A DNA stretch of 64,000 bases. It comes from a virus. Position numbers and translations under genes: made by a program. Shown here piece by piece: positions 1-12,974 of the stretch (its first letter is position 1; each line of letters starts with the position of its first letter). The notes under the pieces are model-generated. The model had not been told where the DNA came from. It saw only the letters and a program-made list of their open reading frames with translations, and did no database searches. The stretch lies in the IMG/VR virus record IMGVR_UViG_3300045988_103180; one strand, written 5' to 3'.

Positions 1-32
1 AAGGAACAAAAGAATTAAAAGGAGAATGGTAA

Positions 33-452
33 ATGGCAGAATCTTATGGTTTAAACTTTAATTTAGCTATGACTACAAATGAGGATGGTGTTGTAGACCT
101 AGGTGTACATGTAACCGATTCTGACGGTCTTGACCTAGACCATAAAGCTAGTGGCAAAGATGCTATGAAGGTTATTGATGAGCTAACTAGTACTCTTACG
201 CGCGAGCTTATGATTGTATCTGATGACCGCAAGCAGAAGAAGGATAAGGAACAGGCTAAAAAGATTAAGAAGGAGCGCGAAGAGCGTGCGGCTAAGCTAG
301 CTGATCTCAAGTCTCAGGCTGAGAAAATCAAGAAGCAGATTGAGGAAATCGAAAAGGACACTAAGGATGCAAAGACTGTCCGCACAAGCCGTCCTTCCTA
401 TGAGTCTCTTCTTGACCAGGATTTTGCTCGTCTACTAAAGCTATTTAGTTAA
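33..452 (+). CDS. hypothetical early protein, K/E-rich coiled-coil C-terminal half
   Basis: 139-aa ORF; AAAGGAG SD about 8 nt before ATG; antisense ORF 44..310 is not protein-like. Confidence 0.7.
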   Translation: MAESYGLNFNLAMTTNEDGVVDLGVHVTDSDGLDLDHKASGKDAMKVIDELTSTLTRELMIVSDDRKQKKDKEQAKKIKKEREERAAKLADLKSQAEKIKKQIEEIEKDTKDAKTVRTSRPSYESLLDQDFARLLKLFS

Positions 453-461
453 AAAAAGTTC

Positions 462-490
462 TTGCCAAGAGCTTTAAGAAGTTATATAAT
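462..490 (+). promoter_or_regulatory. early-class sigma70-type promoter
   Basis: aaaaagttcTTGCCA-17-TATAATata. Confidence 0.7.
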
Positions 491-517
491 ATAGTTAAAG
501 AAAGAGAGGAAGGTATC

Positions 518-868
518 ATGGATTTGTTTGTCAAAGATAAATATTACAATATTGACTCGAAGCGCGACTTGGACGTTTGCTTGAAAGAGAACGGCTTCAA
601 TTATGATGAACTTGAGAATGTGATACTTTCCTATCATGCGGCAGATTATGCGCATGGCGTTGAAGGTCTAATTGGCGATGATTTATACGAGACACAGCAC
701 GCTATCAACTCTGAGTTGAGTGACTTGGAAAACGAGATTAAGAATCTTAATGGTCGTTCGTGCAAGAATAACACTCGTGCGGATATTGCGAATCGACTTA
801 GTGATATTTACGCCAATCTTATGGACTTAAACCTTTCCTGCCAAGTATATGACAGGGATACGCTGTAA
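518..868 (+). CDS. hypothetical early protein
   Basis: 116-aa ORF behind promoter 462..490 and purine-rich SD (agagaggaagg). Confidence 0.7.
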   Translation: MDLFVKDKYYNIDSKRDLDVCLKENGFNYDELENVILSYHAADYAHGVEGLIGDDLYETQHAINSELSDLENEIKNLNGRSCKNNTRADIANRLSDIYANLMDLNLSCQVYDRDTL

Positions 869-878
869 GGAGCTTTTT

Positions 879-1412
879 ATGGGACAAGACATTCATGTTT
901 ATCTTGCTCGCAAGACTAGCGAGTATGCACAGAAGAATGGATGCGAAGAGTATTATCCGGTAGAGTTATTTTCTAAGTATTATAACAATGATGATGATAG
1001 TGTCGTGTATGAATATGCCCAGCCATACAATGGTCGCAATTATGAGCTGTTTTCTTGGCTCATGGATGGCAATGGTCGTGTATATGTAGATGAATCTGCT
1101 TGCCCCGTTGGTCTGTATTTTGACTATGATGGTCTTGTGCCGCAAAAGATTCTTAAAGAATGGGAAGACTGGGAAGAGGGCGGCGCATATGGATATAATG
1201 CTGTTATGCTCTCTGATATTATCAATCATTATAATGCAATTAGTTCTACTAAGTATGCGGTCGATGATATGCTTGGAAGTCATTCCTCTAACAATGAGCT
1301 TAAAGATAGTATCGGTGATTTCATCGAAGACATCAAGCGTTATTGTAGCATTGAAGGAGCATATTATCTAACTCCGCAGGATATTCTTGTTGTCTATTGG
1401 TTTGATAATTAA
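879..1412 (+). CDS. hypothetical early protein
   Basis: ORF 849..1412 trimmed to ATG 879 behind TAAGGAG; internal alternative-frame ORFs rejected. Confidence 0.7.
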   Translation: MGQDIHVYLARKTSEYAQKNGCEEYYPVELFSKYYNNDDDSVVYEYAQPYNGRNYELFSWLMDGNGRVYVDESACPVGLYFDYDGLVPQKILKEWEDWEEGGAYGYNAVMLSDIINHYNAISSTKYAVDDMLGSHSSNNELKDSIGDFIEDIKRYCSIEGAYYLTPQDILVVYWFDN

Positions 1413-1585: not shown

Positions 1586-1658
1586 GCTGCCGTAGCTCAA
1601 CTGGCAGAGCAGCTGATTTGTAATCAGCAGGTTGTAGATTCGATTTCTATCGGCAGCT
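1586..1658 (+). tRNA. tRNA-Thr (UGU)
   Basis: Cloverleaf GCTGCCG/CGGCAGC, D GCTC..GAGC, anticodon loop TTTGTAA, T arm GTAGA-TTCGATT-TCTAT. Confidence 0.85.
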
Positions 1659-1775
1659 CAGAGTGCTAATCTTAGACACTCTCCAAGTGGTAGTAGACCG
1701 AGCTTTGAACTCGCCTGTACTACCCCAAGTCAATTTTAGCGGTTTGGACAGTCGCTATATAAATTTGTCCATTTT

Positions 1776-1848
1776 TGGCTCTTCTTCTAACGGAATAGGA
1801 AAGTGCGCTCTGACCGCATTAATGAAAGTTCGAGTCTTTCAGAGCCAG
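1776..1848 (+). tRNA. tRNA-Gln (CUG)
   Basis: Acceptor TGGCTCT/AGAGCCA (U1-A72), anticodon arm GTGCG-CTCTGAC-CGCAT, T arm GAAAG-TTCGAGT-CTTTC. Confidence 0.75.
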
Positions 1849-1866
1849 CCTAGTTAAAAAAATTAC

Positions 1867-1895
1867 TTGACAAATACCAAGTAATTTTATATAAT
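1867..1895 (+). promoter_or_regulatory. early-class promoter (drives permuted tRNA-like RNA 1)
   Basis: TTGACA-17-TATAATata. Confidence 0.7.
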
Positions 1896-1902
1896 ATAGT
1901 TA

Positions 1903-2370
1903 ACAAATCGTGATGGTGAAGGTTCAGGTTCGACTCCTGCCGCTGTCCGACAAGGACGGCGTAGTTTCAATTGGTGAGAATAGCACCTAGCGATTGTGTT
2001 ATATCCAATGCTTGGGGAGAGGTTATCGCTGCAAGGTAAATGTCTCCCGACTTCTATAATCTTTTGCAGGGATTATAGATTAAAGGGTTGGCGGTTTTCC
2101 CAGTTTGAAACCGTCCACGTGATTATATTATCTTGCTTGCAAGATTTTATATATGCCGGCTCTGTAGCCGTAGACAATGCGGGCCAGCGCATACTTGAAA
2201 AGAAGCGCCTAGGGGAAGAGGAATCTGGTATATTTTGGTAGTTTTCAAACCTCTGCAGATGTGAAAACTACTACTTTAATTGCGGGTGGGAGGTCAGTAT
2301 CTCACGGAGTCTCATAAGCTCTGTTAAGTTTCGGCAGCAGAAACACCTCGCGACCAATTTTTGTTATAAA
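1903..2370 (+). ncRNA. ORF-free structured transcript starting with a circularly permuted, loop-capped tRNA-like module (1906..1995)
   Basis: Begins just after promoter 1867..1895. Order is T arm, acceptor hairpin with GACAA loop, D arm. Followed by a series of 7-11 bp hairpins up to the next promoter. Only ORF present (1996..2241) lacks an SD. Confidence 0.6.
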
Positions 2371-2377
2371 AAATTAT

Positions 2378-2407
2378 TTGACAAATAGTTGAATAATTTG
2401 ATATAAT
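2378..2407 (+). promoter_or_regulatory. early-class promoter
   Basis: TTGACA-18-TATAATata. Confidence 0.65.
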
Positions 2408-2569
2408 ATATCTAGAAGGAAAGGGAAAAAGGATAGTCAACAGTACCGTCAACAAACCAGTGACCCTGCGGCTTATTGCCAACACCCAGAAGTGTAATGC
2501 TTAGTACGCTGTTAGGTTTGACCATTTGTTTTCTTCTAGTGTAGTAAACCAAGAGAAAGGTAAGAAAGT

Positions 2570-2710
2570 ATGGCACAGTCAATCGAGACGATGGAACAGC
2601 GTTATCAGATGCTACTTAACCGCAAAGGTAAGAACTCAGAAAATGTAGGCATCATGCGCAAGCTACGCCGCAAGATTAACAAGGCAAAGCAGGGTGTCAT
2701 TCTTTCCTAA
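2570..2710 (+). CDS. small basic protein (46 aa)
   Basis: Hand-translated MAQSIETMEQ...; preceded by the conserved leader aaccaagagaaagg; below ORF-track cutoff. Confidence 0.5.
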   Translation: MAQSIETMEQRYQMLLNRKGKNSENVGIMRKLRRKINKAKQGVILS

Positions 2711-2725
2711 TTAAGTTTATTTATT

Positions 2726-2821
2726 ATGCGTGATGAGGGTTCAGTTACTTCGTGAAGATTTTATGGGATATTTTAAATGCGGTACGCTGCATTTGTTAGT
2801 CTGACCCCAATTTTTCCGCAT
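2726..2821 (+). ncRNA. R-family structured RNA element, copy R0
   Basis: P1 ATGCG/CGCAT, TGATGAG, P2 GGGTTCAG/CTGACCC, loop starts TTACTTC, 3' tract ATTTTTC. Confidence 0.5.
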
Positions 2822-2829
2822 ATTTTTTC

Positions 2830-2862
2830 TTGACTTCTGGTCTATGTATATTATGATATAAT
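2830..2862 (+). promoter_or_regulatory. early-class promoter (irregular spacing)
   Basis: tttttcTTGACT ... TATAATata; -35/-10 spacing looks too long, so the true -35 is uncertain. Confidence 0.45.
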
Positions 2863-2893
2863 ATACATAGACCAAGAGAGAAAGAGGTTTGTT

Positions 2894-3049
2894 ATGAAGC
2901 AGTTCGTCATTTGTCGTGAAAAGACCTGCGGTATCTATTCAATTCGTGTCAACACTGATTGTTCTACTGTTCGTTTTGAGATAATCAAAGATTTCGACAC
3001 GTTTGAAGATGCAGACAACTACCTTCATAATATTCTTCTATATAAGTAA
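2894..3049 (+). CDS. small protein (51 aa)
   Basis: Hand-translated MKQFVICREK...; leader accaagagagaaagagg plus promoter 2830..2862. Confidence 0.5.
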   Translation: MKQFVICREKTCGIYSIRVNTDCSTVRFEIIKDFDTFEDADNYLHNILLYK

Positions 3050-3059
3050 TTCATTCTAT

Positions 3060-3128
3060 TGGAGTGTAATTCAGTTGGTAGAATGTTGTTAACTCAACGT
3101 GTCGCAGGTTCGAGTCCTGTCACTTCAA
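3060..3128 (+). tRNA. tRNA-like gene with non-canonical anticodon arm (identity undetermined)
   Basis: Normal acceptor, D (ATTC..GAAT) and T (GCAGG-TTCGAGT-CCTGT) arms, but anticodon arm is GTTG-TTAACT-CAAC (4 bp, 6-nt loop); 69 nt. Confidence 0.5.
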
Positions 3129-3157
3129 TAGAACAAAACGTGGCTTATCTACCCTGC

Positions 3158-3229
3158 TGGAGTGTAGCTCAATGGTAGAGCCTGCGGCTGTTAACCGCAT
3201 TGTTGTAGGTTCGAGTCCTACCATTCCAG
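3158..3229 (+). tRNA. tRNA-Asn (GUU)
   Basis: TGGAGTG/CATTCCA, D GCTC..GAGC, TGCGG-CTGTTAA-CCGCA, GTAGG-TTCGAGT-CCTAC. Confidence 0.85.
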
Positions 3230-3280
3230 CAGAGTAGATAGCTACTCAATTTATCCAAAAGTAGAAAAGGAGCTTTGTAA

Positions 3281-3727
3281 ATGTCGTATCCTTATAAGGA
3301 TGAAGTATTGGCAACTAAATATGCTTATATTCCCGATGATGCGGCCAATGCTCCCGCTCGCAAAAAGAAAAAGACAGTGAAGAAAGCCAATCATAAGCAC
3401 GCTTACGATAAGAGTATTGTTATCAATTACTTTGATAAGTACGCTGGCACATGGACTTATGCCTATAGGAATGTTTGTACTATTTGCGGTCGTATCGGTG
3501 ATTTTGTTGATAATGAGGGAATTATCAAAAAGACTTTCCCGCATGTCAAGCCTAGCTGGTTTGGTTTTGCTGTTTCTTTTGGATATAACGATGAATTTGC
3601 TGAATTTACCGAGTGGTCAAAGACTTGGTATCCTCTGATTATTTGGAAAGACTATCAGCCTTTGGATGACAAGTTTATTCCAGACGAGTTTTTTGATATG
3701 CTTGGGATTCAGAAACAAACCAATTAA
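3281..3727 (+). CDS. hypothetical protein
   Basis: 148-aa ORF; AAAAGGAG SD; sits between two tRNA pairs. Confidence 0.7.
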   Translation: MSYPYKDEVLATKYAYIPDDAANAPARKKKKTVKKANHKHAYDKSIVINYFDKYAGTWTYAYRNVCTICGRIGDFVDNEGIIKKTFPHVKPSWFGFAVSFGYNDEFAEFTEWSKTWYPLIIWKDYQPLDDKFIPDEFFDMLGIQKQTN

Positions 3728-3731
3728 AGAT

Positions 3732-3825
3732 GCGCCGGCACTCCGATTGGCCTTGAGAGCGGGGACTCAAAATCCTTTGGCGGTAACCATTCCGCATGTC
3801 GGTCCGAATCCGACCCGGCGTACCA
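3732..3825 (+). tRNA. tRNA-Leu (CAA), type II, CCA encoded
   Basis: GCGCCGG/CCGGCGT, anticodon loop CTCAAAA, long variable arm GCGG..CCGC, GTCGG-TCCGAAT-CCGAC, ACCA. Confidence 0.8.
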
Positions 3826-3827
3826 TT

Positions 3828-3912
3828 GCCGCAGTATTCCTTTAAAGACGAGGGGAAGACTGTAAATCTTCTGTCTATGACTGGCTAGGAGCGTTACCTA
3901 GATGCGGCACCA
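3828..3912 (+). tRNA. tRNA-Tyr (GUA)-like, type II, CCA encoded, atypical T-loop
   Basis: GAAGA-CTGTAAA-TCTTC anticodon arm, 13-nt variable arm; T arm CTAGG-AGCGTTA-CCTAG lacks TTC; 7:66 mismatch. Confidence 0.6.
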
Positions 3913-3923
3913 ATGTTTATTAA

Positions 3924-3993
3924 ATGCGTGATTAAGATTCAGTTACTTCGTATGGGCTTATGTATTGTAACACTGAATCTAACTTTTCCGCAT
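3924..3993 (+). ncRNA. R-family element, copy R1
   Basis: P1 ATGCG/CGCAT, TGATTA, P2 AGATTCAGT/ACTGAATCT, TACTTCG loop start, CTTTTC. Confidence 0.5.
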
Positions 3994-4009
3994 TTATTTG
4001 TTTACCATA

Positions 4010-4113
4010 ATGCGTGATAATAAATCAGTTACTTCATTCTGGAAAAATGCGCTTGCAGGTTCGACTCCTGCTCTGTATCGGTATACATTTTACTGATTTA
4101 GCCTTTTCCGCAT
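4010..4113 (+). ncRNA. R-family element, copy R2 (carries an inserted T-arm GCAGG-TTCGACT-CCTGC)
   Basis: P1 ATGCG/CGCAT, TGATAAT, P2 AAATCAGT/ACTGATTT, TACTTCA, CCTTTTC. Confidence 0.5.
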
Positions 4114-4130
4114 TTACTTTATTAAAGTAG

Positions 4131-4212
4131 GCGATACGTGATAACGTTTCAGATACTTCAAATCTCCATTCTGAGCTGATTACTCAAACTGAAACACCTA
4201 TTTCCGTATCGC
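4131..4212 (+). ncRNA. R-family element, copy R3
   Basis: P1 GCGATACG/CGTATCGC, TGATAAC, P2 GTTTCAG/CTGAAAC, ATACTTCA, CTATTTC. Confidence 0.45.
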
Positions 4213-4223
4213 TTTCTCTTGTG

Positions 4224-4333
4224 CGGCAAGTGATTAGTAAAGAGTTACTTCGTTATATGATATGTTTAAATAAGAGCAACTTTCACTAGAAAGAGGCAAC
4301 CCCACCTATACTCTTTACACTTTTTCCTTACCG
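4224..4333 (+). ncRNA. R-family element, copy R4
   Basis: P1 CGGCAAG/CTTACCG (1 mismatch), TGATTAG, P2 TAAAGAGT/ACTCTTTA, TACTTCG, CTTTTTC. Confidence 0.4.
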
Positions 4334-4387
4334 TTATTTGTAAACCCCTTTCTCGCCTATATAGTGTGCGAGCTATATAGACACAAA

Positions 4388-4464
4388 TGTGCGTGATTAT
4401 TATTCAGTTACTTCATATAGCAATTTTTATGACCATCCAACACTGAATAAACTTTTTCCGCACA
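4388..4464 (+). ncRNA. R-family element, copy R5
   Basis: P1 TGTGCG/CGCACA, TGATTAT, P2 TATTCAGT/ACTGAATA, TACTTCA, CTTTTTC. Confidence 0.5.
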
Positions 4465-4477
4465 CATTGATATTTTA

Positions 4478-4505
4478 TAGGGACTCTTTTGAGTCCCTAT
4501 TTTTT
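4478..4505 (+). terminator. rho-independent terminator
   Basis: TAGGGACTC-TTTT-GAGTCCCTA + T-run. Confidence 0.75.
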
Positions 4506-4506
4506 G

Positions 4507-4536
4507 TTGACTATTGGCTATATATTATGCTATAAT
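4507..4536 (+). promoter_or_regulatory. early-class promoter
   Basis: TTGACT-18-TATAATata. Confidence 0.65.
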
Positions 4537-4563
4537 ATATTTAAGAAATCGAAAGGAGATTCA

Positions 4564-5100
4564 ATGAGCATCTTTGTAGTCAGTGACACTCATTTTTCGC
4601 ATCAGAATATTATCAATTATTGTGAGAAGTCGCGTGCTTTTAATACGGTTGATGACATGAACGAAGACATCATCGAAAGGTGGAATTCCGTTGTATCTCC
4701 TGATGATACTATCTATCATCTTGGTGATTGCTTCATGGGACCGCTTGAGACTGTAGCTAAATATGGTTCTCATCTCAATGGAAAGGTTCATGTGATTCCC
4801 GGCAATCATGATACCAAGAAACGCATTGCTGAAATGGAAAAGCTCGGCTGGATTATTGAAAACAAGGTATCTTGTCTTGATTACAATGATGTCAGTTTCA
4901 TTATGATTCACGAGCGCCCCGAGGAAATGCGTGGAGACAGCGCCAATGTCATTCTATACGGTCATGTTCATGATGCGGCTCCCAAGGGCCTTGTTGATTG
5001 GACATATCATGTAGGTGTTGACACTAATAATCTTACTCCTGTTAATATTCATGACATTTGGCTCGATGTCCAGCAGAAGAAGATTGAGCTTGGAGAGTAA
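4564..5100 (+). CDS. calcineurin-like metallophosphoesterase
   Basis: Motifs SDTHF (DxH), LGDCF (GD), PGNHD (GNHD), YGHVH (GHxH); ORF trimmed to ATG 4564 behind AAAGGAG. Confidence 0.85.
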   Translation: MSIFVVSDTHFSHQNIINYCEKSRAFNTVDDMNEDIIERWNSVVSPDDTIYHLGDCFMGPLETVAKYGSHLNGKVHVIPGNHDTKKRIAEMEKLGWIIENKVSCLDYNDVSFIMIHERPEEMRGDSANVILYGHVHDAAPKGLVDWTYHVGVDTNNLTPVNIHDIWLDVQQKKIELGE

Positions 5101-5101
5101 A

Positions 5102-5296
5102 ATGGAAGTCAAGCATAAGGTCCAGCGTATCTGCGGCAATTGCAGATTTTACAAAAATTGCAGTTGCTATCGCTTTCCTCCAAATGTAATTATTGACCCA
5201 ACAGATTATAATATCTATACAGTACATCCTTCACCGCAAAGTGGAGATAGGTGCGGTGAATGGGCAATTCATCCTAAATTGGAGAAATATGAGTGA
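5102..5296 (+). CDS. small Cys-rich protein (CGNC motif)
   Basis: ORF 5015..5296 trimmed to ATG 5102 next to upstream stop; CGNCRFYKNCSC motif, paralog-like to 5631..5804. Confidence 0.55.
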   Translation: MEVKHKVQRICGNCRFYKNCSCYRFPPNVIIDPTDYNIYTVHPSPQSGDRCGEWAIHPKLEKYE

Positions 5297-5561
5297 AATG
5301 TGTAGTATGCACCTTAATAAAATGACTGCTATGATTCTTGATTTCATTGTGTACCTTAGTCAGCAGAAAGATATTGAGAAGATTGTAGATAAACTTAAAA
5401 AGGTTGACCGTGCTGTTTTCCATGACCTTGTTGTAAATGCTATGGAAAAGAATCCTTCTCATACTAGCACTTATTGTGCTGAGCAGTTATGGAACATGGC
5501 TCCACTTACATCTTTAGCTCTCTTGGATTGGCTTAATAATTTCAACGAATTTTATGCCTAA
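5289..5561 (+). CDS. hypothetical protein
   Basis: ORF 5193..5561 trimmed to ATG 5289 behind GGAGAAAT; overlaps upstream stop. Confidence 0.55.
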   Translation: MSEMCSMHLNKMTAMILDFIVYLSQQKDIEKIVDKLKKVDRAVFHDLVVNAMEKNPSHTSTYCAEQLWNMAPLTSLALLDWLNNFNEFYA

Positions 5562-5568
5562 TTTTTTC

Positions 5569-5598
5569 TTGACTTTTGGTTAAAAGATATGCTATAAT
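5569..5598 (+). promoter_or_regulatory. early-class promoter
   Basis: tttttcTTGACT-18-TATAATata plus conserved leader. Confidence 0.7.
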
Positions 5599-5630
5599 AT
5601 AGTTAAAGAAACCAAGAGAAAGAAGAAATA

Positions 5631-5804
5631 ATGGTTGAAGCGACTAATATATGCGGTAATTGCAAATATTATGAGTCTACAGACCTTTGGTATCTAGGCA
5701 TTTGCCGCAAGCATTTAATTGATGACGAACCTGACAAGGTATGCGTTAATGATTGGATGTGCAATGATGGAGAGTATGACGAAGAGGAATACAATGGAGA
5801 TTAG
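5631..5804 (+). CDS. small Cys-rich protein (CGNC motif, 57 aa)
   Basis: Hand-translated MVEATNICGNCKYYES...; conserved promoter/leader 5569..5630. Confidence 0.5.
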   Translation: MVEATNICGNCKYYESTDLWYLGICRKHLIDDEPDKVCVNDWMCNDGEYDEEEYNGD

Positions 5805-5955
5805 TAAATCTGACCGTGACACATACTTTGACCTGCTTTATGATATGTACGATGCCGACTTGGTTGATGTTGCTTTAGAGACTCTTGGCGAGAATGAGCT
5901 GCTTGATGGCATTCCTGCTATGCTTAAAGACTATTATTTTGACGAAGATTGCTAA
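5794..5955 (+). CDS. small acidic protein (53 aa)
   Basis: ORF 5719..5955 trimmed to ATG 5794; stop abuts the next start codon. Confidence 0.45.
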   Translation: MEISKSDRDTYFDLLYDMYDADLVDVALETLGENELLDGIPAMLKDYYFDEDC

Positions 5956-6855
5956 ATGAAAGTAGCGGTTATGAATTTTAAGACTTTTGAAGGAAATTCT
6001 GGCGATATATGGAAGTATGTCTTTACGAAAGAAGATATGGTCGCCGAAGCGGTTCTATATAAATATAATAGTTACTACGATAGAACTGTAATTTGTTGCA
6101 GCGTTATGAGTGGTTGTCCTGTTGGATGTCTCTTTTGCGGCACTGGTTCTAAATTTGTTAGGAATCTTACTGCTGATGAAATTGTAGATCAGATTGTAAC
6201 CGTCTTAACTAATAAAGGTTTAATTAATGACATTAATGAAAAGTGTAAAAAATTACAGTTTATGTTTATGAGCATGGGTGAGCCTATGTTAAATTGGGTA
6301 GAAGTTGAAAAAGCAATTGTCAATCTTCATAAAAAGTTTAGTAATGCTCAGTTACTACTTTCGACTATTGGCTGTGATAATGATGAAACTTTTGCAAAGA
6401 TGATTGCTCTATCTAAGAAGATAGATAAAATTGGTTTGCAATTTTCTATTCATAAGTCCAATGACGCAGAGCGGAATGTGTTAATTCCATTCAAGAAGAA
6501 AATGAATCTTCAAAAGATTAGGGATGTTGGAACTGTTTGGTGGAAAGAAACCGGTAGGCATCCATTCTTAAACTACTGCATTGATGGAACGAATAATGAA
6601 GATAAGAACTTTAAAGAACTTACAGACCTGTTTTCTCCTGTAATCTTTAATTTTACTTTTAGTGTAGTTTGCGCATCTGATGAAACTATGAAAGATGCTG
6701 CGTTTAGAAACTTAGATGTTATTAAGAAGTTTCAGGATAAGTTCTTAGAAAAGGGTTATAATGTAAGGACATTTGACCCAGCTGGTCAAGATGATATTGG
6801 TGGTGGGTGCGGCCAGCTTTGGTATGTTCAGAAGTGGCTAAAGTCTCACCAATAG
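5956..6855 (+). CDS. radical SAM RNA methyltransferase, RlmN/Cfr family (N-terminally short)
   Basis: CCSVMSGCPVGCLFC (CX3CX2C plus a Cys 7 residues upstream as in RlmN), MSMGEPMLN, LSTIG, C-terminal DDIGGGCGQL as in RlmN ..DIxAACGQL. Confidence 0.85.
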   Translation: MKVAVMNFKTFEGNSGDIWKYVFTKEDMVAEAVLYKYNSYYDRTVICCSVMSGCPVGCLFCGTGSKFVRNLTADEIVDQIVTVLTNKGLINDINEKCKKLQFMFMSMGEPMLNWVEVEKAIVNLHKKFSNAQLLLSTIGCDNDETFAKMIALSKKIDKIGLQFSIHKSNDAERNVLIPFKKKMNLQKIRDVGTVWWKETGRHPFLNYCIDGTNNEDKNFKELTDLFSPVIFNFTFSVVCASDETMKDAAFRNLDVIKKFQDKFLEKGYNVRTFDPAGQDDIGGGCGQLWYVQKWLKSHQ

Positions 6856-6876
6856 TTTAAAAGCAGTTACAGTAAT

Positions 6877-6948
6877 GCGAAATTCGTACAACGGTTAGGA
6901 CATCCTGCTTATAACGGGAAGACGAAAGTTCAACTCTTTCATTTCGTA
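6877..6948 (+). tRNA. tRNA-Ile (UAU)
   Basis: GCGAAAT/ATTTCGT, TCCTG-CTTATAA-CGGGA, GAAAG-TTCAACT-CTTTC. Confidence 0.75.
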
Positions 6949-6963
6949 CCTCTAACTTTTTTC

Positions 6964-6993
6964 TTGACAATTGCATATTGAATATGATATAAT
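6964..6993 (+). promoter_or_regulatory. early-class promoter (drives permuted tRNA-like RNA 2, tRNA array and radical SAM gene)
   Basis: tttttcTTGACA-18-TATAATata. Confidence 0.7.
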
Positions 6994-6998
6994 ATAGT

Positions 6999-7213
6999 TA
7001 TCAAGTCGAGCATAGAGCAGATGTGGGTTCGACTCCCATCCTTGCCCGACAAGGGCGAGGTAGTTTAATTGGTTAAATACGGTTCTTACGTTCGACTAGA
7101 TATATAGAAAATATAGGAAATAGCTTAACCCTATATTTTCAACTTCTAAAGCCTAGCTAGCTTTAGATTAAAAGGTTCGCAACTATCCTTAAAATGGTTG
7201 CCACTAGTGACGG
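6999..7213 (+). ncRNA. second circularly permuted tRNA-like module (6999..7102) plus two long hairpins, leading the tRNA array
   Basis: Same architecture and same GACAA cap as 1906..1995; closing stem TATC-A-AGTCGA / TCGACT-A-GATA; hairpins 7107..7139 and 7146..7168. Confidence 0.6.
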
Positions 7214-7214
7214 T

Positions 7215-7286
7215 GTGTTAGTAGTTTAACTGGCAGAATTGCAAGGTGACGTTCTTGAGATTGGAGTTCGAATCTCCACTAGCGCA
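7215..7286 (+). tRNA. tRNA-like gene with non-canonical anticodon arm (identity undetermined)
   Basis: GTGTTAG/CTAGCGC, T arm TGGAG-TTCGAAT-CTCCA, but anticodon arm CAAG(G)-TGACGT-(T)CTTG gives a 6- or 8-nt loop. Confidence 0.5.
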
Positions 7287-7293
7287 CGAAAAT

Positions 7294-7365
7294 TTCTCTA
7301 TGGTGTAATTGGCAGCACAACGGATTTTGGTTCCGTTAGTTTATGTTCGAGTCATAATAGAGAAG
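7294..7365 (+). tRNA. tRNA-Gln (UUG)
   Basis: TTCTCTA/TAGAGAA (U1-A72), ACGGA-TTTTGGT-TCCGT, TTATG-TTCGAGT-CATAA. Confidence 0.8.
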
Positions 7366-7372
7366 CCAACAT

Positions 7373-7445
7373 GTCCATGTAGCTCAGTAGGTAGAGCAGC
7401 AGACTGAAAATCTGCGTGTCGGTAGTTCAATTCTACCCGTGGACA
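7373..7445 (+). tRNA. tRNA-Phe (GAA)
   Basis: GTCCATG/CGTGGAC, GCAGA-CTGAAAA-TCTGC, GGTAG-TTCAATT-CTACC. Confidence 0.85.
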
Positions 7446-7453
7446 CCTTATAT

Positions 7454-7526
<73 letters not shown>

Positions 7527-7541
7527 CCTTTAGTTTTCTTT

Positions 7542-7615
7542 GGCAGTGTAGCTTAGATGGTTAGAGCGCACGGCTCATACCCGTGAGGTCATTAGTTCAA
7601 ATCTAATCACTGTCA
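7542..7615 (+). tRNA. tRNA-Met or Ile2 (CAU), elongator type
   Basis: GGCAGTG/CACTGTC (G1-C72), CACGG-CTCATAC-CCGTG, ATTAG-TTCAAAT-CTAAT. Confidence 0.8.
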
Positions 7616-7623
7616 CCTTATAT

Positions 7624-7708
7624 GCGGCTATGGCGGAAGTGGCAGACGCGCTAGCTTTAGGTACTAGTGGGGAAACCCATGCAGGTTCGATTCCTGCTAG
7701 CCGCACCA
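7624..7708 (+). tRNA. tRNA-Leu (UAG), type II, CCA encoded
   Basis: GCGGCTA/TAGCCGC, anticodon loop TTTAGGT, variable arm TGGG-GAAA-CCCA, GCAGG-TTCGATT-CCTGC, ACCA. Confidence 0.75.
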
Positions 7709-7723
7709 AGTATTTTGTTTTGA

Positions 7724-8500
7724 ATGGATGTAATTATGTGTAATTATATTGACCACATTGATGCTGTTATTACTCATTATTGTAATTTTAACTGTCCTTT
7801 TTGTATTGATAAATTTAAAACAAATATTAAGAATCCTCAGAATGAATTTAATAAAGAATATTTTAATGATTTTTTAAATTCTTTAAATAAAAAAGAAAGT
7901 TCTGGCGATATTAAGATTAATTCTAATCGTGAGGTTCTATTTTTGGGTGGTGAACCAACAACTGTTGGTTTTAATTTACTGAAGGATTATGCTAATATTG
8001 TTAGTCGTAATGGTTTTCATCCAATTATATCAACTAATGGTGTTGATAAAAACACAATTAAAAAGATTCTTCCATATTTCGATTGGGTACAGGTAACGGC
8101 TCATAGCAAGAAAGAGATTGATGAATGGCGTACGTATAATACGTATGGGAATATCAATCTTAAAATTGCTGGAGATAGTCATTTTACGTATGATAAGTTA
8201 AATTATTTAATTGATAATTGTAAAGATTTTACTCGTCGTAGCGTATCCATGTATTTTACAAAAGATTTTGTTGAATTATGTAAAGATAAAGAAATTTGGA
8301 ATCTTTTAGATTCTTTAAATAATTGGAAAACCAATGGAAGTTACGAGTATGCTTTTTATAAAGATGTTCGTATTAAGAAATGTATACATGGATTAACAAA
8401 TATTATTGATGAACCCACTGTCCCAAAGATTTATGATAAGAAATATAATAAAACATGGGATAATGAAGAATTAGATGATTATTTAAATCTATTTATATAG
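7724..8500 (+). CDS. radical SAM domain protein, substrate unknown
   Basis: HYCNFNCPFC (CX3CX2C) and LFLGGEPT motifs; very AT-rich; directly follows the tRNA array; start 7724 or 7736. Confidence 0.75.
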   Translation: MDVIMCNYIDHIDAVITHYCNFNCPFCIDKFKTNIKNPQNEFNKEYFNDFLNSLNKKESSGDIKINSNREVLFLGGEPTTVGFNLLKDYANIVSRNGFHPIISTNGVDKNTIKKILPYFDWVQVTAHSKKEIDEWRTYNTYGNINLKIAGDSHFTYDKLNYLIDNCKDFTRRSVSMYFTKDFVELCKDKEIWNLLDSLNNWKTNGSYEYAFYKDVRIKKCIHGLTNIIDEPTVPKIYDKKYNKTWDNEELDDYLNLFI

Positions 8501-10645: not shown

Positions 10646-10861
10646 ATGAAAAAAGATACCGTATATGTTTTTAAGCAGATTTTAGATGCTATCCAAGAGC
10701 AAGAAATATCTAGTTCATCTATTGGTTTTGAATATTGCGTATATGAAATGCCGCAAAAAGAATGCGAAGATATATGTATAATCTTGCAGAAACTTGGGTA
10801 TAATGCAATTATAGGACATAGACTCGGAAGTGAGTCTACAATTACAGTGATGAAAGAGTAG
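10646..10861 (+). CDS. hypothetical protein
   Basis: ORF trimmed to ATG 10646 behind AGGTG. Confidence 0.55.
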   Translation: MKKDTVYVFKQILDAIQEQEISSSSIGFEYCVYEMPQKECEDICIILQKLGYNAIIGHRLGSESTITVMKE

Positions 10862-10863
10862 AT

Positions 10864-11175
10864 ATGTGTACATTTGATTATCCAGAACATTATAATTATC
10901 TTACAAAAGACCAGCAGGAGAGCGTTCTAAGCTGGTTCAATACCACGAAAGACATTGAGCGCAGTATTATCAGCACTTCTGTAAAGAGCAAGTCTGAACG
11001 TGAGCTAAAGGCTTTCTCTGAGAACCGTGAACGTTATGAGACGCAGCTTCGCGGAGCACAGTCAATTTTGCGTTCAATGGGCGTCTTTGTTGAATACAAT
11101 TGGCCGGGCCATGAGCATGAGTATTTTCTAGCTACTGCGGCAGATGCCGAGCGTTATCGCAAGGAGCATGAATAA
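10864..11175 (+). CDS. hypothetical protein
   Basis: 103-aa ORF, tightly packed in operon. Confidence 0.65.
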   Translation: MCTFDYPEHYNYLTKDQQESVLSWFNTTKDIERSIISTSVKSKSERELKAFSENRERYETQLRGAQSILRSMGVFVEYNWPGHEHEYFLATAADAERYRKEHE

Positions 11176-11369
11176 TGGCCGCATGTATTCATGGAGACGT
11201 ATGCCGTGCATGGATGCGACAGACAGGCAGTATTGCACCATTGCGTGCATCTTGTCCTAATTGTCCTTGGTTTGAGCCTAAGTATCGCCCTTGTGATACT
11301 TGGTTTAATAGAGATTGTATGCGCGATTGGCAAGGTCGCCCAGTCGTAACTTGTCGCGCGATGATTTAG
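11175..11369 (+). CDS. small Cys-rich protein
   Basis: 64-aa ORF, start overlaps upstream stop (ATAATG). Confidence 0.55.
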   Translation: MAACIHGDVCRAWMRQTGSIAPLRASCPNCPWFEPKYRPCDTWFNRDCMRDWQGRPVVTCRAMI

Positions 11370-11380
11370 AAAGGTATTTT

Positions 11381-11656
11381 ATGATTGCTAATGATGCCCG
11401 CACAATGGTATATGATACTCTTTATAAGTATGATTATGACATTCCCCAAGAGTTAGAAGATAAAATCAATGAAGAGATTATTGCTGCGGCAGAGCGTATG
11501 AAGTTTCGTTGTAAGGTCGAGCTTTTCCCCTGTGATGATGAACGAGCGCAGGATGTAGAATTTCGCCGCAGTATTGTTGTGTATTATCATAGTTTAGGTT
11601 ATAATTGTTACGTGACACCTTGTAACGGTCATTTTGTTTTAGTAGTGGAGTGGTAA
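11381..11656 (+). CDS. hypothetical protein
   Basis: ORF 11315..11656 trimmed to ATG 11381 behind GAAAGG. Confidence 0.6.
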   Translation: MIANDARTMVYDTLYKYDYDIPQELEDKINEEIIAAAERMKFRCKVELFPCDDERAQDVEFRRSIVVYYHSLGYNCYVTPCNGHFVLVVEW

Positions 11657-12041: not shown

Positions 12042-12974
12042 ATGGCTTCTGAGTTTGGTTTTCGCCCATGCAAGATTGAAGATTTGAAAGGACAACCAAA
12101 AGTCCAAAAGATGCTGCAAATCTATATTAAGGCGGCACAGATTAAGAAGGAATCTTTCCCGCATACGATTATCACAGGCCAGTCTGGTTGCGGCAAGACC
12201 GCTACGGCTAATGTAATCGCACACGAGCTTGGATATGGGTTTAAGGCTTTCTCTGGCCCTGCGATTAATGATAAGAAGGTAATTGACGAGATTCTTCTTA
12301 ATCTTAAAGAGAATGACGTGCTCTTTATCGACGAAATTCATAGAATTAGCCAAAGATTGCAAGAGTCTCTATATTTTGCAATGGAGCAGTTCCAAGCAGA
12401 TGTTGTAGTGGACGGAGTGGCGACAAGGGTGAGCTTGCCGCATTTTACTCTTATTGCCGCAACTAATCTTTATGGTGGTCTTAACGATGCGCTTTTGAAC
12501 CGTTTCCCTATTCAAATTAAATTAGCCGCATATTCTAAAGCTGATATGGCATCTATCGTAGAGAAGATTTGTCAAGAGAAGAAAATTAAGATTGATGAAG
12601 AGAGTGTCTATAAGATTGCGGCAACTACTCGCGGTATTCCACGCAATGCCAACTCTTATGTAGCCCGTGTATATGATTTTGCATTGGTGATGAATGATGG
12701 TGTAATCAATCCTGAAATTGTTGATGAAGCCCTATATGTGATGGGAATTAATAAGTTTGGTCTTAATCAAGATGATATGGATTATATGAATTTCCTTAAC
12801 AGTAATACTCGTGCTGTAGGTGTGGATACAATTTGTCTTACTCTTGGCATGGATAAAGATACTGTGCAAACAAAGATTGAGCCTTATCTGCTATCCAAGT
12901 GTTATATTCAAAAGCAGCCGCGTGGTCGTGTCATCACCGATTTAGGTCGTGCAATGATGGAAGAGTGTGAATAA
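12042..12974 (+). CDS. ruvB: RuvB-like AAA+ ATPase (Holliday junction branch migration motor homolog)
   Basis: GQSGCGKT Walker A, VLFIDEIHRI Walker B, FTLIAATN, TRGIPRNAN, C-terminal PRGRVIT; collinear with RuvB over full length. Confidence 0.8.
   Translation: MASEFGFRPCKIEDLKGQPKVQKMLQIYIKAAQIKKESFPHTIITGQSGCGKTATANVIAHELGYGFKAFSGPAINDKKVIDEILLNLKENDVLFIDEIHRISQRLQESLYFAMEQFQADVVVDGVATRVSLPHFTLIAATNLYGGLNDALLNRFPIQIKLAAYSKADMASIVEKICQEKKIKIDEESVYKIAATTRGIPRNANSYVARVYDFALVMNDGVINPEIVDEALYVMGINKFGLNQDDMDYMNFLNSNTRAVGVDTICLTLGMDKDTVQTKIEPYLLSKCYIQKQPRGRVITDLGRAMMEECE

Follow-up and report, generated by a model that had tools for sequence, protein, structure and literature searches.

The window analysed here is a 64,000-nucleotide (nt) stretch of the virus record IMGVR_UViG_3300045988_103180 (IMG/VR). 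The element under study is a small RNA of about 99 nt, called type A, which is encoded at 1902-2000 on the plus strand within a cluster of tRNA genes. The evidence set out below supports type A as a tRNA-shaped Y RNA of the YrlA type. YrlA RNAs have been described in bacteria and phages as partners of Ro60/Rsr (Chen et al. 2014, PMC4201824). Direct reading of the sequence found the promoter and every structural element named in the first-pass annotation of 1903-2370 exactly where they had been placed, base for base. They are as follows.

1867..1895, plus strand: sigma-70-type promoter (TTGACA at 1867-1872, 17-nt spacer, TATAAT at 1890-1895; 12/12 consensus match)
1902..2000, plus strand: type A, compact YrlA-like Y RNA of ~99 nt, the flagged element
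1906-1910, plus strand: AATCG, 5′ strand of the terminal helix, followed by TGAT at 1911-1914
1915-1918, plus strand: GGTG, inner 'anticodon-stem' strand, pairing with CACC at 1984-1987
1919-1923, plus strand: AAGGT, 5-nt variable loop
1924-1940, plus strand: T arm tCAGG-TTCGACT-CCTGc, with the canonical T loop UUCGACU
1941-1961, plus strand: closed acceptor-like hairpin CGCTGTCC-GACAA-GGACGGCG (as RNA, CGCUGUCC-GACAA-GGACGGCG), eight pairs including one G.U, capped by GACAA
1962-1963, plus strand: TA, the U8-A9 equivalents
1965-1979 (feature 1962..1980), plus strand: D arm TTTC-AATTGGT-GAGA, with the G18-G19 equivalents
1984..2000, plus strand: 3′ strands CACC (1984-1987), TAG (1988-1990) and CGATT (1991-1995), with the terminal helix strand CGAUUGUGUU

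Type A thus presents the YrlA order of a T arm, a closed acceptor-like stem-loop, a D arm and an opening at the position of the anticodon stem. The first-pass annotation had likened this permuted order to YrlA; the likeness is borne out by the structure line of the Rfam YrlA family (RF02553), which runs through a closing stem, a T arm, a closed acceptor-like hairpin and a D arm. In the terminal helix the 5′ end AACAAAUCG is paired with the 3′ end CGAUUGUGUU. The promoter spacing would place the start of the RNA at about A1902/A1903, so that its first bases would lie within the terminal helix. Nucleotides for the tRNA tertiary contacts can be read at U1962 and A1963, A1969/A1970, GG 1973-1974 and UUCGA 1929-1933, and the A15 equivalent is able to pair with U1923. 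The segment CGUGAU (1909-1914) comprises the helix end CG followed by UGAU in the internal loop; it is proposed as the Ro60-contact motif, common to the short Y RNAs of the window (GCGUGAU).

ARAGORN and the Rfam tRNA model found 11-12 tRNAs within 1586-7708, none of them at type A. Neither makes a tRNA call across 1903-2000, and the permuted reading of this region survives that check. Direct reading shows no 7-nt anticodon loop with U33, the internal loop being UGAU/UAG, and no CCA after the acceptor end, which is closed by GACAA. [quoted passage not shown]

The pattern GGTTCRANTCC-N(8-12)-GACAA-N(8-12)-TAGTT occurs twice in the window, at 1927 and 7026, and not once in 100 dinucleotide-preserving shuffles. 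The second match belongs to a paralog, type B, with the following parts.

6964..6993, plus strand: type B promoter, perfect consensus
7004..7097, plus strand: type B, YrlA-like Y RNA, heading a run of six tRNAs (7215-7708)
7004-7011/7090-7097, plus strand: outer helix of 8 bp, AGUCGAGC/GUUCGACU
7014-7018/7082-7086, plus strand: inner helix of 5 bp, AGAGC/GUUCU
7023-7039, plus strand: T arm GUGGG-UUCGACU-CCCAU
7040-7060, plus strand: capped hairpin CCUUGCCC-GACAA-GGGCGAGG
7063-7078, plus strand: D arm GUUU-AAUUGGUU-AAAU

Types A and B have a common leader, UAUAAUAUAGUUA(A/U)CAA(A/G)UCG, and type B reads GUCGAG where type A has CGUGAU. The minimum-energy fold of type B is exactly the cloverleaf, at -38.2 kcal/mol. 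Relative to type A, both partners have changed and pairing is kept at three pairs in the capped hairpin and at two in the T stem. When seven distinct type B sequences of related contigs are compared, pairing holds in 92.9% of cells, and sliding the partners leaves no more than 48%. Pairing in the capped hairpin is 100%, with double changes at four of its pairs; one more doubly changed pair lies in the inner helix. Some relatives have another hairpin altogether, for example CUUCGCGU-GAUAG-ACGCGAAG. The Rfam YrlA model matches type B at 7005-7098 with a sub-threshold score (27.8 bits, E=1.4e-4), and the match spans both closing helices, the T arm, the capped hairpin and the D arm. We also built an independent YrlA model, R1, from 22 YrlAs located directly upstream of TROVE genes in unrelated IMG/VR contigs; in this training set RNAalifold found compensatory changes in 17 of the 19 pairs. 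R1 scores 36.6 bits on type B (E=6e-6) and 27.3 bits on type A (E=7e-4).

Two radical SAM proteins (5956-6855 and 7724-8500, plus strand) flank type B and its tRNA run. The unrelated contig L086 also has a radical SAM gene (10666-11586) close to its Ro60/Y RNA region. At 7215-7287 (plus strand) ARAGORN reports a tRNA with a four-base anticodon (gacg) and undetermined identity, which the Rfam tRNA model scores at only 35.1 bits.

Six further Y RNA-like units lie between the two tRNA-shaped copies, five of them in tandem (3921-4464).

2725..2822, plus strand: short Y RNA 1, GCGUGAU...CAGUUACUUC...UUUUCCGCA
3921..3996, plus strand: short Y RNA 2
4009..4114, plus strand: Y RNA 3, a Y RNA stem plus a T arm (GCAGGUUCGACUCCUGC), lacking the acceptor-like hairpin and the D arm
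4129..4214, plus strand: short Y RNA 4, ACGUGAU...CAGAUACUUC
4223..4334, plus strand: short Y RNA 5, GAGUUACUUC
4388..4464, plus strand: short Y RNA 6

Their consensus is GCGUGAU...CAGUUACUUC...CUGA...UUUUCCGCA. Most carry (U)GCGUGAU(N)nUCAGUUACUUC at the 5′ end and CUGA(N)nUUUUCCGCA at the 3′ end, units 4 and 5 having diverged. Each folds as a classic Y RNA, with a terminal stem, an internal loop, a second stem and an apical region. The motif AGWTACTTC occurs eight times in the window against 1.1 expected, six of these occurrences falling at 2743-4414 on the plus strand. No Rfam family reaches its gathering score over the six units. Unexpectedly, the best R1 match of the whole window is Y RNA 3 (4015-4113, 39.5 bits, E=1.3e-6). 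The boundary between helix and loop is alike in type A (AAUCG|UGAU) and in the short Y RNAs (AUGCG|UGAU). In the 61%-identity relative L255, a full YrlA stands exactly at the slot occupied in the window by short Y RNA 1. The tRNA-like domain has evidently been gained and lost as a module in this phage group. Together with types A and B, the Y RNA set predicted in the window would have at least eight members, which is its most striking aspect.

Type A was compared among 15 distinct sequences from related contigs. Hardly any change is seen in the leader, the two closing helices, the D loop or the 3′ flank, and the interior is variable. The helix 1906-1910/1991-1995 is paired in 15/15 relatives and never varies. 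The inner stem GGUG/CACC is 100% paired, with a single G-C to G-U change found in three sequences. The T stem is 94.7% paired, with both-sided changes at three pairs, and the D-stem pair C1968-G1976 becomes U-A in contigs L253 and L250. Type A is absent from the close relatives L241, L243, L246 and L254 and from the 61%-identity relatives L255/L256.

A YrlA assignment raises the question of the protein partner. The first-pass annotation had seen no rsr gene in the window, and we found no TROVE protein there, either in Pfam and PHROGs searches of 20 open reading frames (including every one of 250 aa or more except one) or with a TROVE hidden Markov model (HMM) run on the six-frame translation. 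Near and distant BLAST searches of the region against GenBank phages gave nothing useful and returned no close relative. The portal proteins of the window and of the gut phage Phass-1 share 41% identity. IMG/VR contains many contigs of ~140 kb that are 85-97% identical to the window. In these relatives the Ro60 gene was found by walking upstream from a flanking 315-aa protein and searching with the TROVE HMM, close relatives being the contigs that are 86-100% identical in this flanking protein. The TROVE gene lies on the opposite strand, ~9 kb upstream of the flanking protein, a site ~12.2 kb upstream of window position 1. It is complete in contig IMGVR_UViG_3300045988_089790 (L260), which is 96% identical to window 1-1400: the gene at L260:7040-8500 encodes 486 aa with a TROVE score of 54.2 bits, and its distance to the module is ~14.8 kb. 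A TROVE gene is present in 23 family contigs, which include 21/21 close-relative contigs that extend far enough and five of the seven contigs carrying type B, the other two being partial. The extension of the rsr search beyond the window was therefore successful in the close relatives, and the window's own genome is likely to encode Ro60 as well.

The Ro60 gene of the relatives has its own consensus promoter and a 78-nt upstream intergenic spacer. No Y RNA stands beside it in L260: the spacer contains no RNA, and Rfam finds nothing in L260:5000-10500. Its Y RNAs should therefore be encoded elsewhere, and the cluster of the window is the obvious candidate. An ATP-dependent RNA ligase gene (PF09414, L260:4130-5062) lies 2 kb upstream of Ro60 on the same strand, an arrangement reminiscent of the rsr-rtcB linkage in bacteria. 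Downstream of Ro60, L260 has a GyrB-like gene. In a sister subgroup, whose proteins are 40-50% identical to those of the window family, a canonical YrlA is found ~100 nt upstream of Ro60.

Capped modules consisting of a T arm, a hairpin and a D arm were also sought in unrelated contigs. The first IMG/VR pattern scans returned mostly tandem tRNA junctions and were filtered for a self-complementary hairpin and the absence of an ARAGORN call. The strict scanner flags 33 of 80 Ro60-containing IMG/VR loci, about 25 of which look genuine by eye. L086/L150 provides an independent example, with a compact promoter-proximal module 4 kb from the TROVE gene. Phass-1 (OQ749652.1) carries one capped module at 106443-106479 on the minus strand (L149:6443-6479), beside a tRNA-Thr gene.

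Other observations were made on these contigs. In the Ro60-positive L086/L150, two capped modules lie head to tail at 12324-12440 (plus strand in L150), in the order hairpin, D arm, linker, T arm, hairpin, D arm, the 5′ strand of the first hairpin being UUACUUCG. Downstream of a TROVE-like gene, L084:2360-2700 (plus strand) contains tRNA genes, at least two of which have insertions of ~60 nt; these insertions have a common motif, UUGUCCC-NNNN-GGGAAUGC, and an intron-like look. Full permuted tRNAs with an anticodon arm were considered in L050, L016 and L079 and rejected, the extra hairpin being the V arm of canonical YrlAs, whose loop is often anticodon-loop-like (CUGCUAA, CUGUUAA). Phass-1, the nearest annotated relative, belongs to a 'code 15' (TAG-recoding) clade and has CTA suppressor tRNAs.

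The remainder of 1903-2370 contains the following structures.

2005-2113, plus strand: hairpins
~2130-2155, plus strand: terminator-like hairpin AUCUUGC-UU-GCAAGAU with a U-rich run
~2151-2233, plus strand: self-closed unit with the loop AUACUUGAAAAG
2236-2273, plus strand: long hairpin
2280-2353, plus strand: uncalled cloverleaf with a non-canonical T loop (GGCAGCA), CAU in the anticodon-arm loop and a 3′ end ...GACCAA

The whole interval had been taken for a single transcript of ~470 nt, which the several self-closed units and the terminator-like hairpin make unlikely. The segment 2003-2370 is 91-98% identical among relatives and probably represents several separate small RNAs, not the tail of type A. 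The degenerate tRNA-like fold with a CAU loop that had been noticed at 2282..2352 was recovered: for 2278-2358 the structure of minimum energy is a cloverleaf with CAU in the loop of its anticodon arm. The cloverleaf at 2280-2353 is called by neither ARAGORN nor Rfam. No Rfam family matched 1903-2370 at its gathering threshold or at E<=10, the matches being at chance level only (SpF41, mascRNA, CRISPR-DR62), and a group I intron or a riboswitch in 2003-2370 found no Rfam support. The loop AUACUUGAAA(A/G)GAA of the unit at ~2151-2233 is kept in L255:16598-16662, just before tRNA-Lys, and it resembles the (U/A)UACUUC motif of the Y RNAs. A third perfect promoter of the window lies in 2378-2710 (plus strand; counterpart L255:15888-16226). 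It is followed by a conserved leader of ~160 nt (GGAUAGUCAACAGUACC...), with a weak rli28-like match of 23 bits, and then by a conserved 46-aa open reading frame (2570-2710). At 3060-3128 (plus strand) the Rfam tRNA model gives a match of 44.2 bits that ARAGORN does not report.

The explanation that best accounts for these data is that 1902-2000 encodes a compact YrlA-type Y RNA without a V arm, a predicted partner of Ro60 whose tRNA mimic is the effector end. We put its probability at roughly 75%. Several observations weigh against it. The closing helices of type A are invariant among relatives and thus come without covariation evidence, and the capped hairpin is hypervariable, being imperfect or replaced in most of the 15 sequences. 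It is 53% paired in the alignment, with part of the shortfall due to misalignment; the imperfect hairpins of the relatives form helices of similar length, and the window copy is one of the well-formed ones. Covariation in the capped helix and the closing stems, on which the first-pass annotation had made its reading depend, is found in the hairpin of type B and at one pair of its inner helix, and not in these parts of type A; the T stem covaries in both copies. Given the hypervariable hairpin and the patchy presence of the RNA, type A behaves like an accessory Y RNA of the set, one that evolves fast. Folding likewise recovers part of the design: the minimum-energy structure of 1903-2000 (-32.4 kcal/mol) keeps the closing helices and the capped hairpin and lacks the T and D stems, and the proposed fold lies 5.4 kcal/mol higher, at -27.0 kcal/mol. 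The z-score against shuffles is only -1.8, and thermodynamics by itself lends the fold weak support. In type A, two motifs of the co-resident Y RNAs, (Y)UAC-UUC (UUACUUC) and the 3′ UUUUCC, are missing. Its CGUGA, like the CGAG of type B, is not the published CGAA; these motifs are therefore similar but not identical to the published ones. The Ro60 gene is ~15 kb off, on the opposite strand, not adjacent to the module, and it is seen in relatives and not within the window. Finally, the complete genome of Phass-1 has no detectable TROVE gene or Y RNA motif cluster.

Model scores also count on this side. The Rfam YrlA model has no match to type A at E<=10, even on a 111-nt stretch, and its comparison with the window, envisaged from the start as a check, speaks for the paralog and not for type A itself. 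Neither copy reaches the gathering score of 69 set for RF02553. However, this cut-off is insensitive for phage members: in the control mycobacteriophage Bxz1, where gp220 is a TROVE plus Ro60-vWA protein, the accepted YrlA located ~190 nt upstream of gp220 scores 32.5 bits. R1 gives two ordinary tRNA-tRNA junctions of the window 36.5 and 33.7 bits, above the 27.3 bits of type A; the 'acceptor' stems of these junctions are mispaired. Such junctions were cautioned against as YrlA false positives in PMC4201824. The R1 score therefore supports the assignment and does not decide it.

The main rival explanation is a tRNA mimic that works independently of Ro60 and would draw off, as a sponge or decoy, readers of the tRNA elbow or body such as tRNA-targeting defence nucleases of the host, RNase P or modification enzymes; its occurrence in company with Ro60 would then be incidental. 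It keeps some probability because Phass-1 has the module, beside tRNA-Thr, but no TROVE gene. Both window copies lie inside the tRNA gene cluster, type B at the head of a tRNA operon, and the missing UUACUUC and UUUUCC motifs and Rfam match of type A point the same way. We nevertheless consider it unlikely. Every informative close relative encodes Ro60, with no Y RNA adjoining it, and CG|UGAU at the helix/loop boundary is common to type A and the six Y RNAs. The Rfam YrlA match of type B runs through the closing helices, and the module lacks an anticodon loop and a free CCA end, the usual targets of tRNA-directed toxins. As for Phass-1, its host might provide Ro60. Type A could instead be a functionless relic, the junction left by two tandemly duplicated tRNA genes with the 3′ half of one followed by the 5′ half of the next. 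The R1 scores of tRNA-tRNA junctions, with the published caution about them, the degenerate capped hairpin of most relatives, a tRNA-like fold that is not of minimum energy, and the absence of type A from L241, L243, L246, L254 and L255/L256 speak for such a relic. Against it stand a perfect promoter at such a distance that the RNA would start with bases paired to the 3′ strand, flanks and closing helices that are nearly invariant around a variable interior, compensatory changes in the T and D stems, a paralog whose structure stays perfect through many compensatory changes, and the same design in unrelated Ro60-positive phage contigs. We regard a relic as less probable still than a mimic acting without Ro60.

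A true circularly permuted tRNA gene, as in Cyanidioschyzon, matured by joining of the ends and opening of the cap by RNase P/Z, is the least probable of these explanations and seems very remote. In its favour, only the anticodon loop is missing from the permuted set of arms, the relatives have an RNA ligase gene near Ro60, and RNase P cuts the M. smegmatis YrlA, which receives CCA (PMC4201824). Joining the strands, however, would give UAG+UGAU in type A or UAC+AU in type B, with no U33 and, in type B, a loop of the wrong size. There is no anticodon loop and no bulge-helix-bulge motif, position 73 is followed by GAC and not by CCA, and the outer helix is conserved as a helix.

If type A is a Y RNA of the YrlA type, the phage Ro60 ring protein would bind its terminal helix and the CG|UGAU motif, and the L-shaped tRNA mimic would form the effector or adaptor end, read by tRNA-elbow proteins. 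TruB and Dus recognise Salmonella YrlA. These two enzymes would be candidate readers here, possibly along with RNase P, PNPase and RNA-repair enzymes. Binding of type A by Ro60, the ends of the RNA and the downstream effector are predictions from sequence and from related systems. A Ro60-Y RNA-PNPase assembly was shown in Deinococcus and proposed for phage phiLo (PMC4201824, PMC12135203). By analogy with Deinococcus and phiLo, the particle may redirect or restrain host RNA decay and quality control during infection, through PNPase or a related enzyme. A more speculative proposal, which we hold to be improbable, is that the tRNA-shaped Y RNAs are adaptors taking Ro60 and a host exonuclease or the phage RNA ligase to the tRNA machinery or to damaged tRNAs; the eight-member set would then be an RNA-repair or counter-defence particle directed against tRNA-cleaving immunity of the host. 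Alternatively, the capped tRNA mimic would act as an elbow decoy independent of Ro60, a reading to which Phass-1, with its module and no TROVE gene, points.

For work on the role of Ro60-Y RNA particles in bacteria and phages, and especially on that of YrlA's tRNA-like domain, this gut phage family is a compact natural system in which one Ro60 gene is accompanied by at least eight Y RNAs in less than 6 kb. Two of these Y RNAs have the full tRNA-like body and one has the T arm only. Among relatives the same slot holds either a short Y RNA or a full YrlA, and a related phage has the module without Ro60. Such natural variation makes the partner and the purpose of the tRNA-like domain directly testable. 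The Rfam YrlA model and searches of Ro60 neighbourhoods miss phage Y RNAs located far from Ro60.

Like the YrlA of RF02553, types A and B consist of a closing stem, a short variable loop, a T arm, a closed hairpin, U-A, a D arm and the closing stem again. They have a canonical T loop and the D-loop GG, and their acceptor-like hairpin is conserved as a structure and not as a sequence. As in YrlA systems, there is more than one Y RNA per genome and Ro60 comes from the same phage genome, here as seen in relatives. The compact form without a V arm resembles the enterobacterial YrlA represented by the Rfam model. Unlike these YrlAs, type A is not adjacent to Ro60, which lies ~15 kb away in divergent orientation with its own promoter; it is encoded among tRNA genes and has a consensus promoter of its own, lacks a clear YUAY motif, reads CGUGA in place of GNCGAA/CGAA and falls below the Rfam threshold. 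The Ro60-contact motif has been given as GNCGAAN0-1G (PMC4201824) and as CGAA in an internal loop (PMC12135203).

The canonical phage YrlAs found beside Ro60 (for example L153:5836-5962, and L255:16233-16366 in the 61%-identity relative) belong to the same phage group, on contigs of ~140 kb. Types A and B have the same T arm and the same type of D arm, and the terminal stems are of one design (AUGCG|UGAU...UUUCCGCAU in L255, AAUCG|UGAU in type A). The canonical RNAs carry GUUACUUC, a V hairpin and a second stem (UUCAG/CUGAA), whereas types A and B replace all three by a stem of 4-5 bp and a variable loop of 4-5 nt. In the Thermus phage phiLo (Hu et al. 2025, PMC12135203), Ro60 engages host PNPase and binds Yrl1/2 through the CGAA motif. 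As in phiLo, a phage Ro60 (here in the relatives) occurs with several phage Y RNA-like partners; the phiLo motif lies in an internal loop flanked by a 5′-3′ stem, and host PNPase is the likely effector. Going by the text of that paper (PMC12135203), the phiLo Yrl1/2 are encoded directly upstream of Ro60, unlike the Y RNAs of the window, and are not presented as tRNA-like, a term absent from it. With the permuted tRNA genes of algae and archaea, type A has in common that the tRNA 3′ half precedes the 5′ half and that the acceptor ends are joined by a short linker. These genes, however, mature to tRNAs with an anticodon loop, whereas type A lacks this loop and has a conserved helix at its open end. 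Phages encoding Ro60 have been known since 2014 to carry YrlA, and in 2025 the complex of a phage Ro60 with Yrl was solved, so that type A joins an existing class. What is new here is the phage lineage, the separation of the RNA from Ro60, its site in a tRNA cluster with its own promoter, and a CGUGA motif in a form missed by Rfam.

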